A DNA stretch of 64,000 bases. Origin: Escherichia phage vB_EcoP_EP32B. Below are positions 7,089 through 42,090 of the stretch, one piece after another. Both the position numbers and the translations under genes were made by a program. The stretch's first letter is position 1; every line of letters begins with the position of its first letter. A model generated the notes under the pieces. It made no database searches and had not been told where the DNA came from. It saw only the letters and a list, made by a program, of their open reading frames with translations. Location of the stretch: sequence record OR544955; one strand, written 5' to 3'.

Positions 7089-7328
7089 ATGGCCCAAGAA
7101 TTAGATTTTATCAAATTCAAAAAACACCTCGACGTTAAAATTGGGGATTCAATTGTTAGGATTGAGTATGACATTTTAACAGATGCTATTACTGTTAGTT
7201 GTGATGGAAATAGTTTCAGCTTCGATACAACCGAAAACAAATACCCAATATATAAAGGTATCTTTGATATGGGTGTCGATATCAGCCCACGCGATACAAA
7301 TTACTTGCTTTTCATGCTTAAAAAATAG
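7089..7328 (+). CDS. hypothetical protein
   Basis: 79-aa ORF with RBS. Confidence 0.45.
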   Translation: MAQELDFIKFKKHLDVKIGDSIVRIEYDILTDAITVSCDGNSFSFDTTENKYPIYKGIFDMGVDISPRDTNYLLFMLKK

Positions 7329-37407: not shown

Positions 37408-37719
37408 ATGGTTTATGTATATGCAATAGTTTATCGAGATATGGAAGGATTTACTGTCCCGGTTCCACTTGATGAGCATCGTCCTGCAGTATTTTTTAGA
37501 AAGGATATTGCAGATAAAGTTTTCGATACTTTGAAAACACAGTATAAAACAGATTTAAAAATGGGAGTTCTAAGAATGGTCGAAACTCCGCGTAAGTTCT
37601 GGTTTAATAAGCTTGAAATGAAACACGTTAAACTAGATGCGGAGACGCAAAGATTGTATCAACGAATCCTGGACACAGGCCGTATTGTTAGTATTCCAAT
37701 TGCAGGGACTTTACGATGA
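37408..37719 (+). CDS. hypothetical protein
   Basis: 103-aa ORF coupled to dda. Confidence 0.5.
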   Translation: MVYVYAIVYRDMEGFTVPVPLDEHRPAVFFRKDIADKVFDTLKTQYKTDLKMGVLRMVETPRKFWFNKLEMKHVKLDAETQRLYQRILDTGRIVSIPIAGTLR

Positions 37720-39029
37720 CATTTGATGATTTGACTGAAGGCCAGAAAAACGCCTTCAACGTTGTTATGGAAGCTATTAAAGAAAAGAAACATCATGTAA
37801 CTATTAATGGACCTGCTGGTACAGGTAAAACAACCCTTACTAGATTCATCGTTGAAGCCCTTATTTCTTCTGGAGAATCAGGTATTATTTTAGCAGCCCC
37901 TACACATGCTGCTAAAAAGGTTCTAAGCAAACTTGCAGGTCAAGAAGCATCGACTATTCATAGCATTCTTAAAATCAACCCAACTACATACGAAGAAAAC
38001 GTATTGTTTGAACAGAAAAAGGTTCCCGACTTAGCCTTGTGTCGTGTACTGTTATTTGATGAAGCGTCAATGTGCGACCGTTCTCTGTTTAAAATAATGT
38101 TAGCTAGTATCCCTAAATGGTGCACAGTAATTGGAATCGGCGACCGATGCCAGATTCGTCCGGTAGACCCAGGCGAATCAACTGCGTATCTAAGTCCTTT
38201 CTTCACTCACAAAGACTTCGTGCAATGCAACCTTACAGAAGTTAAACGTAGCAATGCACCAATTATTGATGTTGCGACCGATATTCGTAATGGCAAATGG
38301 ATTTACGATAAAGTAGTTGATGGACACGGTGTTCATGGATATACAGACCTTAAATCATATATGATGAACTATTTTAACGTCGTTAAAACTCCTGAAGACC
38401 TTTTCGAAAATCGAATGATGGCATTCACAAATAAGTCGGTGGACAAGTTAAATTCAATTATTCGCCGAAAACTTCTTGAAACAGAAAAACCATTTATTAA
38501 AGACGAAGTCATTGTTCTACAAGAGCCATTTACTAAGACATATAAGCTAGACGGTAAAAATATGACCGAAATGCTTTTCAATAATGGGCAATTCGTTCGT
38601 ATTCGAGATGCTGTAGAAACGTCTACATTCGTTAAAGCACGTGGCGTTTCAGGCGAATATATGATACGATACTGGAATCTTACAGTAGAAACATATGGCG
38701 ATGATGAAGAATACGTCCGAGAGGATATAAAGGTTATTTCTTCTGAAGAAGAGCTTTATAAATTCAATTTGTTTTTGGCTAAGACCGCAGAAACATACAA
38801 ATTCTGGAATAAAGGTGGTAAAGCTCCATGGAGCGAATTCTGGGATGCTAAACGTATGTTCACTAAGGTGAAGGCACTACCAGTATCAACCTTCCATAAG
38901 GCCCAGGGTATGTCTGTTGACACGGCCTTTGTTTATACACCGTGTATCCATTATGCTGATTCAGAATTAGCTAAACAGTTATTGTATGTCGGCACGACTC
39001 GTGGTCGTTTTGACGTCCATTTTATTTGA
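37716..39029 (+). CDS. dda: DNA helicase Dda (SF1B)
   Basis: 437 aa, Walker A GPAGTGKTT, Walker B LLFDEASM; recalled T4 Dda match. Confidence 0.95.
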   Translation: MTFDDLTEGQKNAFNVVMEAIKEKKHHVTINGPAGTGKTTLTRFIVEALISSGESGIILAAPTHAAKKVLSKLAGQEASTIHSILKINPTTYEENVLFEQKKVPDLALCRVLLFDEASMCDRSLFKIMLASIPKWCTVIGIGDRCQIRPVDPGESTAYLSPFFTHKDFVQCNLTEVKRSNAPIIDVATDIRNGKWIYDKVVDGHGVHGYTDLKSYMMNYFNVVKTPEDLFENRMMAFTNKSVDKLNSIIRRKLLETEKPFIKDEVIVLQEPFTKTYKLDGKNMTEMLFNNGQFVRIRDAVETSTFVKARGVSGEYMIRYWNLTVETYGDDEEYVREDIKVISSEEELYKFNLFLAKTAETYKFWNKGGKAPWSEFWDAKRMFTKVKALPVSTFHKAQGMSVDTAFVYTPCIHYADSELAKQLLYVGTTRGRFDVHFI

Positions 39030-39038
39030 GAGAAAATT

Positions 39039-39716
39039 ATGAGCACTGATGTTATTATAGATTTTGAAACATTCGGCAATACATCAAAAGCGGCTGTTAT
39101 TGACCTTGCGGTTATTGCATATAATTCCGACCCTGAAGTTGTTGAATCATTTGAAGAACTTGTTCAACGAGGTAAGCGAATTAAATTTAATTTAGCTTCT
39201 CAAAAAGGGAAGCGAGTTTTCGCTAAATCCACTATGAAATGGTGGAAAGAACAGTCAGCAGAAGCGCGTAAAAACCTGGCTCCGTCTGAAGACGATGTCA
39301 CTACGCTTGAAGGCATTAAAATCTTTTTAGACTATTGCCGAGCTAATAAAGTTGACCAATGGAAATCACAGATGTGGTGCCGTGGTATGAGCTTTGACTT
39401 CCCGATCTTGGTCGATTTGATTCGTGACCTCTATCGTGATGAAGGTGTTCTTGAACCAGATATTGATACTGATAAATTAGAACCGGTTAAATTCTGGGCT
39501 CAACGTGATATTCGTACGGCAATCGAAGCTTACTCGTTGACACGAGGATTAAGTATGTGTCCATTACCGATGGGTACGCTAAAAGGATTCGTTGCCCATG
39601 ATAGTATTCATGATTGTGCTAAAGATATTTTGATGTTAAAATATGCTCAGCGTTATGCGCTTGGCCTTGAAGATGTCCCTGAGAATCCTGACCCGTTAAG
39701 TGTAAAACAGCGATAA
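39039..39716 (+). CDS. dexA: exonuclease A DexA (DEDDh)
   Basis: 225 aa, IIDFETFG exo motif, HD near C-terminus. Confidence 0.85.
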   Translation: MSTDVIIDFETFGNTSKAAVIDLAVIAYNSDPEVVESFEELVQRGKRIKFNLASQKGKRVFAKSTMKWWKEQSAEARKNLAPSEDDVTTLEGIKIFLDYCRANKVDQWKSQMWCRGMSFDFPILVDLIRDLYRDEGVLEPDIDTDKLEPVKFWAQRDIRTAIEAYSLTRGLSMCPLPMGTLKGFVAHDSIHDCAKDILMLKYAQRYALGLEDVPENPDPLSVKQR

Positions 39717-39722
39717 AACCAG

Positions 39723-39753
39723 TTTACAACCAAGGATGGTTGGAGTATAATGA
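39723..39753 (+). promoter_or_regulatory. early promoter
   Basis: -35 GTTTACA, 17-nt spacer, -10 TATAAT; shares CCAAGGATGG box with 40280 promoter. Confidence 0.6.
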
Positions 39754-39781
39754 ATCTATCTTAACCAAACAGGAAACCATT

Positions 39782-40276
39782 ATGAATATCAATACTACGG
39801 CTACTTACATCCTGAAAGATGAAAAACAAATCAACTGGTATGGTGCTTCAGTGCGAGCTTATGAAAAGTTTTGTGAAATTTTAGGTGCCACTCAAGGTAA
39901 TAGTTTCACTATTGTTAACTTCATCAAACAAGTTGAAGGCCCTTGGTTATTCTTAGAAATTAAAAATTCATATGGTACAATTTCTACTACCGCCCTTCCA
40001 AGCACCGACTTTGAACTGTTGATTGAAGAAGCACCTGTTAAAGATGGTCTCCACTTTGATATGGATATCGCTTGTATGTACGGTACTTTAGTTAAACCTA
40101 TCGAGCCTACAGACTTGTTGTGTAAAGCAGTTTCAATTCGTCGACCATTCGCTGGACCGGTAAGTGGCTGGGTAACTGACCAGTGGATTGAAGACGGTGT
40201 TGAACTTCTGAACGTTGTTCATGCAGGTGATTTTAGTGTAGTTCCACGTAGTGCTGTGGTTAATATTCTAAATTAA
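39782..40276 (+). CDS. paralog family member 1 (C-terminal WxxDxWIEDG..LxNVV motif)
   Basis: RBS CAGGAAACC; C-terminal motif shared with next two genes. Confidence 0.55.
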   Translation: MNINTTATYILKDEKQINWYGASVRAYEKFCEILGATQGNSFTIVNFIKQVEGPWLFLEIKNSYGTISTTALPSTDFELLIEEAPVKDGLHFDMDIACMYGTLVKPIEPTDLLCKAVSIRRPFAGPVSGWVTDQWIEDGVELLNVVHAGDFSVVPRSAVVNILN

Positions 40277-40279
40277 TGT

Positions 40280-40310
40280 TGTACATCCAAGGATGGATGG
40301 AGTATAGTGA
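40280..40310 (+). promoter_or_regulatory. early promoter
   Basis: -35 TTGTACA, -10 TATAGT. Confidence 0.55.
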
Positions 40311-40336
40311 ATTCAATTTAAACAAAGAGAGAAATT

Positions 40337-40792
40337 ATGATTACTATTGGTGAAATTAAGCGTGTATCAACTGCATCCCGTTCTAAAGCCGCAGGTCGTC
40401 TGGTTGAAGTAGTAGGACTTCGTACTAATGGCATGGGCCGTATTAAAGAAGTTAAAGTTCGAATCATTCCTAGTTTTGGACGTCAGGATACTCAGTACGC
40501 TTACGTAAGTCCTAAATTCTTGGAAACTCATGTGAGCGCTCATTTTGCTTCTACTGAACCTAATGTACAGTTCAAATGGGCCCTTTGCAAAGGCGTTGAA
40601 TTCCGGACTGATAAAGAATTTGATTTCATCGACGAATACGGCTATCCAAACAAAACTGATATTATGTGCGGCTTCATCAGTGACCGATGGGTTGAAGATG
40701 GTGAAAAGTTATACAATATCGTATTCTTAGGTGACTTCCGAGTTGTTAAAGAATCTGAAATCACTCGCTATGTGTCTCCTCGTAAAGCTTAA
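40337..40792 (+). CDS. paralog family member 2
   Basis: 151 aa; CGFISDRWVEDGEKLYNIVFLGDFRVV. Confidence 0.6.
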   Translation: MITIGEIKRVSTASRSKAAGRLVEVVGLRTNGMGRIKEVKVRIIPSFGRQDTQYAYVSPKFLETHVSAHFASTEPNVQFKWALCKGVEFRTDKEFDFIDEYGYPNKTDIMCGFISDRWVEDGEKLYNIVFLGDFRVVKESEITRYVSPRKA

Positions 40793-40801
40793 GGAATTAT
40801 T

Positions 40802-41221
40802 ATGAATATTGTAAATCTCTCTACAGGTGATTACGTATATGTATCTGTTGCTTCTCGCTCTAAAGTTGCCGGGAAGTTGGTTGAAGTTCTTTCTGTGAGT
40901 GATCCGGTTTTTGGTCGTAACCAAGTTAAAGTTCGTGATGCTAATGGTAATATTGGCTACGTTACAAGCCAATTCATTGAACCAGAAGAAAAAGCGTTCA
41001 AATGGGGACTATGCAGATCAGTTTCTGTTGAAAAAGACCATGAATTCACTATTGCTGCAGCAACTGATGGAACACCGTGGAAAACTAAGCAAATCGCCGG
41101 ATTTATTAGCGACCGTTGGGTAGAAGATGGTGTTAAGCTTTATAACATCGTTTTCGCTGGTCAGTTCATGGTAGTTCCTGAATTCCAAATCAAAAAATAT
41201 AGCCCAGCTGCTTTCGCATAA
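40802..41221 (+). CDS. paralog family member 3
   Basis: 139 aa; AGFISDRWVEDGVKLYNIVFAGQFMVV. Confidence 0.6.
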   Translation: MNIVNLSTGDYVYVSVASRSKVAGKLVEVLSVSDPVFGRNQVKVRDANGNIGYVTSQFIEPEEKAFKWGLCRSVSVEKDHEFTIAAATDGTPWKTKQIAGFISDRWVEDGVKLYNIVFAGQFMVVPEFQIKKYSPAAFA

Positions 41222-41225
41222 AGTT

Positions 41226-41275
41226 GTTTACTTCTCCTCTGGTTTTGATATTATATCCATATCAACCAGAGGAGA
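41226..41275 (+). promoter_or_regulatory. early promoter with 12-bp inverted repeat flanking -10; distal arm includes SD
   Basis: -35 GTTTAC 41226-31; IR 41233-41244 / 41264-41275. Confidence 0.6.
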
Positions 41276-41280
41276 ATAGT

Positions 41281-41805
41281 ATGTTAGTTTACCGCGTAGA
41301 ACGTAGTTTTTGTACTCAACGTGAATCATTACCAGGAATTGCTATCGAAGACGGTAAAGCCGTCAGAATTTGGGAAACCTCTTGGAATAAAGAACCTCGC
41401 TCGCCTTACGGTTGGTCGGGCACTGACAACTCTGAAGAAACATGGGAGTTCCTTGATAAGCATGGAATACTCTCAGGCAACTTCTACCATCACGGCGACA
41501 ACTATAATGTCCCTAATCGTCCTACAGTAAATGAAGACAAACTCCTTGAACAAAATATCTTAAGATACTATAGAATTGATTACACATTTGAATTGAGTGA
41601 AGATTGGGCTCAAGGGTTCTATTTTGGATTTGAAAGTGTTGACGCGGTTTATGCATGGTTTGATGACCAGGTGGATGTTGAACTCTTGAAAGCTAAAGGA
41701 TACTACATCGCGGTCTATGAAGCACCTGATTTCATCCTCGGAAGTTGTCAATTAATGTTTAGACGTTCATTGGCAGAACAAGTTGATTTTATTTTGCTAA
41801 AATGA
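41281..41805 (+). CDS. hypothetical protein
   Basis: RBS AGAGGAG. Confidence 0.5.
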   Translation: MLVYRVERSFCTQRESLPGIAIEDGKAVRIWETSWNKEPRSPYGWSGTDNSEETWEFLDKHGILSGNFYHHGDNYNVPNRPTVNEDKLLEQNILRYYRIDYTFELSEDWAQGFYFGFESVDAVYAWFDDQVDVELLKAKGYYIAVYEAPDFILGSCQLMFRRSLAEQVDFILLK

Positions 41806-41862
41806 TGTACAACAACTATGGTCTATGATACTATAGACCTATCAAAACAAGAGGAGAATATT

Positions 41863-42090
41863 ATGAAACGTCAAATCATTAAAAACGTAACTACTGATTC
41901 AAACATCGATGAGTTTGAAGATGTTCTGTTTAATCCTGATTTAGTTGTTGTACAGAAAAACTGGACTGAATTTTTATGCTACACTGAAGTGGTTTACGTT
42001 TACGAAAAACTAGGTGACGAAATGCCTATCTATGGTATCTTCCGTGAAATCACTGAAAATGGTACAACTTATTGGAAGGAAACTTACTAA
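41863..42090 (+). CDS. hypothetical protein
   Basis: RBS AAGAGGAG. Confidence 0.45.

Follow-up and report, generated by a model that had tools for sequence, protein, structure and literature searches.

A motB.1-motB-motB trio in the early region of an RB69-like T-even phage

Three consecutive genes of the window (the whole 64 kb stretch of DNA analysed), here called ORF1, ORF2 and ORF3, were found to be paralogues of the MotB.1/MotB family. The best explanation as a whole, to which we give a probability of about 0.8, is that they form the motB locus of an RB69-like T-even phage, in which an early trio of motB.1, motB and a second motB is situated between dexA and motB.2/cef and ORF2 acts like T4 MotB. 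The source phage is a Mosigvirus, an RB69-like T-even phage. The segment 39000-42100 showed 97.5% identity to O157 typing phage 3 (Mosigvirus O157tp3) and 96-97% identity to many other Mosigvirus genomes. The gene order in the window is dda-dexA-(3 genes)-motB.2-cef-goF-39, and this location on the same strand in the early dda-dexA...cef-goF-39 region is that expected of MotB proper (PHROG 1671). ORF1, ORF2 and ORF3 follow each other on the plus strand. The features of the locus are as follows.

37716-39029, dda, upstream of the trio
39039-39716, dexA, upstream of the trio
39722..39751, plus strand, P1, early-type sigma-70 promoter GTTTACA-N17-TATAAT upstream of ORF1 (11/12 consensus match)
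39782..40276, plus strand, ORF1, 164 aa, MotB.1 homologue (phrog_2333, Pfam motB, T4 MotB.1 match)
40106..40273, plus strand, shared C-terminal domain, copy 1 (PTDLLCK...GWVTDQWIEDGVELLNVVHAGDFSVVPRS; tblastn, alignment)
40280..40308, plus strand, P2, degenerate promoter-like site TGTACA-17-TATAGT upstream of ORF2 (9/12 match)
40337..40792, plus strand, ORF2, 151 aa, MotB orthologue with a basic KOW-like N-terminal domain and a C-terminal domain
40571..40789, plus strand, shared C-terminal domain, copy 2 (tblastn, alignment)
40802..41221, plus strand, ORF3, 139 aa, second full-length MotB paralogue of the RB69 ORF010c type (Pfam, phrog_1671)
40997..41218, plus strand, shared C-terminal domain, copy 3 (tblastn, alignment)
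41226-41254, plus strand, early-type promoter GTTTACT-N16-TATTAT downstream of ORF3, preceding ORF4
41229-41281, plus strand, hairpin embedding that promoter; boundary of the unit, 41226..41281
41281..41805, plus strand, ORF4, 174 aa, MotB.2 homologue (34% identity to T4 MotB.2; phrog_1106)
41863-42090, cef, downstream of ORF4

RB69 possesses the identical arrangement of motB.1, motB, second motB, motB.2 and cef (RB69p010, p011 and p012+p013), with 91-96% amino acid identity. In T4, the order is dexA-motB.2-motB.1-motB-cef, whereas here and in RB69 it is dexA-motB.1-motB-motB'-motB.2-cef; motB.2 is thus positioned after the trio here and before motB.1 in T4. The family, its domain architecture, the paralogy of MotB and MotB.1 and the occurrence of three copies in RB69-type phages are already published (PMC7827196). 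That study described two motB and one motB.1 in RB69, and a conserved C-terminal domain common to MotB and MotB.1 along with differing N-terminal domains, probably resulting from duplication. As the paralogy is published and the three-copy state was reported for the same genus, the trio is a rediscovery; the sequence-only reading had not identified it as the named MotB/MotB.1 family. The present analysis corrects the promoter picture to one strong promoter, one weak copy and an apparently co-transcribed ORF3, and finds conservation of the copies instead of diversification, their evolution proceeding by whole-domain swaps.

Family membership was analyzed with Pfam, BLASTP and tblastn. ORF1, ORF2 and ORF3 scored 35.8, 124.8 and 75.9 bits, respectively, against the Pfam motB family (PF17613, "motB, modifier of transcription"), all of them above its gathering cut-off of 25 bits. 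In pairwise BLASTP, ORF2 and ORF3 aligned over their whole length (E=2e-31, 44% identity over 148 columns), while ORF1 matched ORF3 with E=6e-10 and ORF2 with E=1e-8. Searching with the C-terminal domains by tblastn detected exactly three copies in the 64 kb window and no further copy elsewhere in it. The shared domain is all-beta and composed of about 55-73 residues. It is rich in W, D, N and G and is not of low complexity. The motif G-[FWY]-[IV]-[ST]-D-[QR]-W-[IV]-E-x-G-x-x-L-[YL]-N-[IV]-V is situated at the C-terminal end of all three ORFs and is near-invariant in the homologue alignments. A profile of the three C-terminal domains matched only 26 clusters (50% identity) among 1.84 billion proteins, and in all but two of these clusters the domain is also at the C-terminal end. 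BLASTP and the Pfam scores above cut-off thus confirm what the sequence-only reading had noticed, namely three consecutive ORFs of 164, 151 and 139 aa with a C-terminal block in common. Its description of the N-termini as divergent holds for ORF1 only, since the 44% identity of ORF2 and ORF3 extends over the whole length and an N-terminal SRSKxAGxLVEV...VKVR domain is common to both.

ORF1 consists of a putative LSm/SH3-like N-terminal domain, a disordered linker and a MotB-type C-terminal domain. It matched phrog_2333 over its full length (residues 1-164, E=1e-81) and Pfam motB with residues 88-159, and its last 38 residues gave a secondary match to phrog_1671. T4 MotB.1 is the PHROG 2333 protein, the 'Category 2' of Patterson-West et al. 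2021 (PMC7827196), and its N-terminal domain was described by Kim et al. 2025 as a five-stranded LSm/SH3-like barrel and placed in an LSm-like family with GoF and Frd.2 (PMC12152347). BLASTP of ORF1 with T4 MotB.1 gave E=8e-28 and 38% identity to the reference form, which rises to 55% with the intact 143-aa form. The two proteins are alike in that they align over both the N-terminal and the C-terminal domain, are acidic and are encoded directly upstream of motB. ORF1 differs by a 21-residue linker insert (DGLHFDMDIACMYGTLVKPIE) and by a strong early promoter of its own, whereas motB.1 of T4 and RB27 begins about 10 nt after motB.2 and has no promoter. The mechanical ORF list begins ORF1 at TTG 39740. 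As this codon sits inside the promoter spacer, ATG 39782, preceded by AGGAAA, was taken as the real start, in agreement with the annotation of related phages.

In the reference records of T4 and RB69, motB.1 is truncated by frameshifts inside the shared C-terminal domain. Two single-base insertions split it into ORFs of 132 aa and 29 aa in the RB69 record; unlike there, the gene is intact in the window and in five other Mosigviruses, and re-sequenced T4 also lacks the break of its reference record. The published MotB.1 experiments were carried out with a truncated form of 119 aa and 13.8 kDa (PMC12152347). Because this form ends inside the C-terminal domain, a function of MotB.1 could have been missed. 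The truncation in the records affects the reading of these experiments as well as that of the 29-aa "Category 3" peptide.

ORF2 and ORF3 both matched phrog_1671 ("MotB-like transcriptional regulator"), with E=3e-63 and E=1e-50, respectively. In BLASTP with T4 MotB, ORF2 showed 47% identity (E=6e-41) and ORF3 37% (E=2e-24). The match of ORF2 is full-length. Like T4 MotB, ORF2 combines a conserved C-terminal domain with a basic, KOW-like one at the N-terminus, and both genes are found between dexA and cef in the early region; ORF3 resembles T4 MotB in layout at its lower identity. The KOW-like N-terminal domain with the SRSKAAG-LVEV motif, as expected of MotB proper (PHROG 1671), is present. At 151 and 139 aa, ORF2 and ORF3 fall short of the 162 aa of T4 MotB, the difference lying mainly in the linker. 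ORF3 additionally differs from T4 MotB in being near neutral and lacking the IIPxxG loop, and the promoter of ORF2 is weaker than that of T4 motB.

Searching all PDB chains with the sequence of ORF2 gave no match at E<=1, and ORF2 is therefore without a solved relative. The AlphaFold2 models of ORF2 and ORF1 (pLDDT 83.3 and 78.7, respectively) each possess two small all-beta domains and a disordered linker, and the alignment places the common C-terminal domain in all three ORFs. Foldseek against viral models (BFVD) retrieved MotB.1/MotB proteins including T4 P39415, and weakly GoF. The N-terminal domain of ORF2 and ORF3 is KOW/SH3-like, while that of ORF1 is probably another kind of small beta-barrel, for which the literature uses the term LSm-like. 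Patterson-West et al. 2021 predicted that MotB has a KOW domain at its N-terminus and an OB fold at its C-terminus (PMC7827196). The likeness to the KOW domains of NusG/Spt5/RfaH and to the SH3-like barrels of the Tudor/PWWP 'royal family' is a fold-level resemblance only (10-20% identity) and gives no sign of RNA polymerase or histone-mark binding. The three proteins also differ in charge. The N-terminal domain of ORF2 is basic (pI 11.0, net +8) and its C-terminal domain slightly acidic (pI 5.1), ORF1 is acidic throughout (pI 4.65) and ORF3 is near neutral (pI 7.8). Nonspecific DNA binding, toxicity in E. coli and co-purification with H-NS/StpA are known for T4 MotB only (PMC6070864, PMC7827196); the basic N-terminal domain of ORF2 would be compatible with them, and the near-neutral ORF3 less so.

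Promoters were found to be unequally distributed over the trio. P1 is one of three exact matches to GTTTAC-N16-18-TATAAT in the 64 kb window, against 0.09 expected. Both of its hexamers are unchanged in all seven Mosigvirus sequences compared (7/7), with a single base change in the spacer in ST0. The 9/12 score of P2 is also reached by random shuffles. P2 lies in a 48-nt segment (40282-40329) which directly repeats the P1/5'UTR region (39725-39772) with 81% identity. The GTTTAC/TATAAT site upstream of motB in T4 occupies the same intergenic interval as P2, but the sequences do not align base for base. ORF3 has no promoter, because only 9 nt separate its start from the stop of ORF2, and the plus strand between 40308 and 41227 yielded no promoter-like site; ORF3 has a Shine-Dalgarno of its own, AAGGA. 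A search for terminators between the genes gave only a weak 5-bp stem within the end of ORF1, without a T-tract, which was rejected. RNA structure around P1 and P2 was like that of shuffles (z 0.26 and -1.37). With P1 strong, P2 degenerate and no promoter for ORF3, it is most likely that ORF1, ORF2 and ORF3 form one transcription unit from P1, within which P2 may serve as a weak additional start. ORF2 and ORF3 look co-transcribed, and we infer the operon structure from these sequence signals. The sequence-only reading had assigned a GTTTAC/TATAAT promoter to each gene. This was right for ORF1, is doubtful for ORF2 and was wrong for ORF3, as the third GTTTAC site (41226-41254) lies downstream of ORF3 and belongs to ORF4. 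Its picture of tandem early paralogues is retained in that the genes are paralogues in the early region with an early-type promoter upstream; 'triplicated, each with its own promoter' applies to two of the three at best.

T4 MotB, an early, non-essential protein, is toxic in E. coli. Its binding to DNA, whether modified or unmodified, shows no sequence specificity, H-NS and StpA co-purify with it, and burst size is up 2-fold (PMC6070864). It also de-represses H-NS-silenced host genes and changes H-NS footprints, with 75 host genes up-regulated (PMC7827196). The link between MotB and H-NS in T4 is based on co-purification, footprints and overexpression. Knock-down of motB in T4 barely altered the phage transcriptome. 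The sequence signals and, for the function of ORF2, the 47%-identical T4 orthologue suggest the following course. Host RNA polymerase would fire P1 right after infection, and perhaps the weak P2 too, and ORF1, ORF2 and ORF3 would be transcribed together, giving three proteins from one early transcript, with ORF3 translated from its own Shine-Dalgarno. Like T4 MotB, ORF2 may coat DNA with its basic KOW-like domain in a sequence-independent manner, and this coating would perturb H-NS/StpA nucleoprotein filaments, relieve H-NS-type silencing and improve burst size. ORF1 and ORF3 would present the same C-terminal module with other N-terminal modules, and the acidity of the former and the neutrality of the latter argue against a simple duplication of MotB DNA coating. 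The simplest guess, drawn solely from charge and domain shuffling, is that the N-terminal domain contacts nucleic acid and the C-terminal domain serves for partner binding or self-association. A partner-binding role would explain the recombination of the C-terminal domain with several types of N-terminal domain.

Such a role leads to an alternative which we consider unlikely, in which the C-terminal domain serves for dimerisation or for docking to a partner and the paralogues form mixed complexes, for example with acidic MotB.1 tempering the toxic basic MotB, or with an LSm-like RNA-binding domain brought to the same site. The C-terminal domain is not basic (pI around 5 in ORF1 and ORF2) while the MotB N-terminal domain is, and it is joined to at least three N-terminal types and to tandem N-terminal domains. 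Homologue alignments contain chimeras with a T4-type N-terminal and an ORF3-type C-terminal domain (P0095), a window-type N-terminal and a T4-type C-terminal domain (P0038) and KOW-type N-terminal domains with a MotB.1-type C-terminal domain (P0156, P0197, P0208 and P0159), and two tandem N-terminal domains are present in P0145 and P0225. T4 MotB.1 appeared as monomer and dimer in non-reducing SDS-PAGE (PMC12152347), and MotB.1 and MotB are adjacent in every examined locus having both. However, AlphaFold3 yielded no confident MotB.1 homomultimer, the form used being the truncated 119-aa one, and deletion of motB.1 in T4 had no phenotype (PMC12152347); phage F48, moreover, has a single copy. 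More doubtful again is a version in which the C-terminal domain is not a DNA binder but a common dock for H-NS/StpA or the paralogues, so that a three-copy phage assembles mixed MotB/MotB'/MotB.1 complexes and MotB.1 moderates the toxicity of MotB. If true, basic KOW, neutral KOW and acidic LSm-like domains would be brought to the same nucleoid target.

Another alternative, along the lines of the sequence-only reading, is an arms-race cassette of anti-defence paralogues which diversify and are each expressed independently right after infection. The genes are indeed early and small, belong to a dispensable mosaic region and vary in copy number from 1 to 3 in related phages. HMM counts on fetched loci gave three genes in the window, in all six Mosigviruses fetched (6/6) and in Tequatrovirus RB27, two in T4, teqskov, Dhakavirus E33 and Gaprivervirus VR20, and one in Klebsiella phage F48 (Marfavirus); all Mosigviruses examined thus have three. 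A word-indexed homologue search with ORF2 yielded mainly ORF2-type MotB homologues and, among the proteins listed, one with an ORF3-type C-terminal domain, and the copy-number picture needed tblastn against phage genomes, in which 777 phage records matched ORF3 and 753 matched MotB.1. Synonymous divergence (dS) is 0.13-0.63 at the motB genes against 0.05-0.10 in the flanking dexA and ORF4, which points to the exchange of old alleles, and the chimeric combinations of N-terminal and C-terminal domains exist. Variation proceeds by the swapping of whole alleles and domains. H-NS silences foreign DNA, and countering it is defence-related in a broad sense (PMC7827196). Pairwise Nei-Gojobori dN/dS between the window and six Mosigvirus orthologues was, however, only 0.07-0.21 for ORF1, 0.10-0.25 for ORF2 and 0.07-0.21 for ORF3, compared to 0-0.06 for the flanking dexA and cef. 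Selection on the trio genes is purifying, if somewhat relaxed, and not diversifying; there is no gene-wide positive selection. The near-invariant C-terminal motif across the family, the missing promoter of ORF3 and the weak one of ORF2 also stand against such a cassette, and PMC6070864, PMC7827196 and PMC12152347 report no link to a defence system. We regard it as improbable. T4 MotB is a host-interaction protein (PMC6070864, PMC7827196), and to that extent the proposed host-interaction function stands; a specific anti-defence role is not supported for any member.

That the trio includes one or two redundant duplicates in decay is highly improbable. T4 can dispense with the region, motB.1 is broken in the T4 and RB69 reference records, and a 43-aa MotB.2::MotB.1 fusion remnant (P0236) was found among the library proteins. 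However, the window and six related phages all have the three ORFs intact, dN/dS does not exceed 0.25, the T4 break is absent from re-sequenced T4, and 207 of the 777 records matching ORF3 contain a copy at least 80% identical, of the ORF3 type. An origin of the shared block by chance or low complexity, which the sequence-only reading had named as its refuter, is excluded by the E-values of 1e-8 to 2e-31, the Pfam scores above the curated cut-off, the W/D/N/G-rich composition and the near-invariant motif in 26 clusters.

The motB trio is bracketed by early-type promoter sites. The relaxed T4-early pattern GTTTAC-N16-18-TAHNAT occurs 15 times in the window, always on the plus strand, against 0.69 expected, and the sites at 39722 and 41226 are the two which enclose the trio. 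Some GenBank records label ORF4 "transcriptional regulator", and its membership was checked for this reason. ORF4 showed no significant BLASTP match to ORF1-3 and lacks the shared C-terminal domain, and was therefore rejected as a fourth family member; it gave no Pfam match. The hairpin at 41229-41281 has a fold dG of -24.8 kcal/mol (z -6.0) and pairs with the ORF4 Shine-Dalgarno only in read-through RNA, the z of RNA started at the promoter 41226-41254 being 0.12. An equivalent arm pair of different sequence was seen by eye in T4 and RB27.

The T4-early-type promoter pattern GTTTAC-N16-18-TAHNAT was found 15 times in the whole window, while 0.69 matches are expected by chance. All 15 of the 15 matches are on the + strand, which indicates that one long rightward early region dominates the window. 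Matches outside the MotB neighbourhood and the repeat at the trio are as follows.

537, 1726, 5930, 6603, 28576, 29010 and 29577 (+): T4-early-type promoter matches, examples
30007, 33818, 35299, 53495, 54084 and 55818 (+): T4-early-type promoter matches, further examples
39725-39772 and 40282-40329: direct repeat of 48 nt, 81% identical, over the promoter spacer, -10 box and 5'UTR of ORF1 (MotB.1 homologue) and ORF2 (MotB)

In the ORF2 copy, GTTTACA of ORF1 is replaced by GTTGTACA and TATAAT by TATAGT. The repeat suggests that the duplication unit took in the promoter, which was later weakened in front of ORF2. In Escherichia phage ST0 (MF044457.1), an open motB frame of the ORF2 type with a strong C-terminal domain match was observed at positions 2000-2600 of the extracted locus, and it is unannotated in the GenBank record.

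Exchange of domains was also found in the MotB family. The chimera set consisted of the homologous proteins P0095, P0036, P0038, P0156, P0197, P0208, P0159, P0145, P0225 and P0236. Some natural chimeras join a MotB N-terminal domain of one allele type to a C-terminal domain of another, with the recombination point in the linker, while others carry a MotB.1-type C-terminal domain on a KOW-type N-terminal domain. Some family members possess two N-terminal domains in tandem. A 43-aa protein, in which the first 15 residues of MotB.2 are fused to the last 28 of MotB.1, is a deletion remnant.

The T4 reference NC_000866.4 contains an extra G at about 7291-7300 (GGATTGGAAGATGG against GGATTGAAGATGG, compared with window 40185-40200), and AF158101.6 is identical to it in sequence. 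The extra base shortens MotB.1 to 119 aa and breaks it in the middle of the C-terminal motif shared by the trio. Past the break, the +1 frame reads EDGVELLNVVHAGEYSVVPRSAVVAILN, which is perfectly conserved. MotB.1 is intact with 143 aa in re-sequenced T4 (MT984581), and 256 contigs carry this intact sequence (P0107 of the protein library). The main tblastn piece reached E=1e-91 in about a dozen other T4-type records versus 2e-73 in the T4 reference, suggesting from sequence that motB.1 is intact in those records also. Kim et al. 2025 made motB.1 synthetically and reported a protein of 13.8 kDa (PMC12152347), which is the truncated form; 'frameshift' and 'truncat' have zero occurrences in the text of that paper.

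The RB69 reference NC_004928.1 (8376-8872) shows two insertions of one base each in motB.1, separated by about 60 nt, when compared with window 40140-40276, leaving a 132-aa ORF (RB69p013) and a 29-aa ORF (RB69p012). Reading through three frames wholly regains the conserved MotB.1 sequence, and thus the peptide of 29 aa that Patterson-West et al. 2021 placed in 'Category 3' is simply the MotB.1 tail. The splits are probably sequencing errors, because motB.1 is unbroken in the window and in five other Mosigviruses.

ORF4 (motB.2) is positioned before motB.1 in T4 but after the second motB in Mosigvirus. The following features surround it.

41232-41250 and 41840-41858: inverted repeat of 19 nt, 95% complementary, flanking ORF4
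41264-41283 and 41846-41865: direct repeat of 20 nt, 90% identical, formed by the ORF4 and cef Shine-Dalgarno regions, flanking ORF4
41229-41281: strong hairpin with arms TTCTCCTCTGGTT / AACCAGAGGAGAA, dG -24.8 kcal/mol, z -6.0

The repeats might mark a transposition junction, or they might be merely similar ribosome-binding sites. The -10 box of the ORF4 promoter falls inside the hairpin, whose predicted fold sequesters the Shine-Dalgarno of ORF4. RNA started at the ORF4 promoter misses the 5' arm and shows no structure (z 0.12). Ribosomes would thus translate ORF4 on the transcript of its own promoter, but not on RNA that reads through from the MotB trio. The same arrangement is present in T4 genes e, soc and 49. 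T4 and RB27 possess an arm pair judged equivalent by eye, although its sequence differs (TCCTCGGTTAG / CTACTGAGGA).
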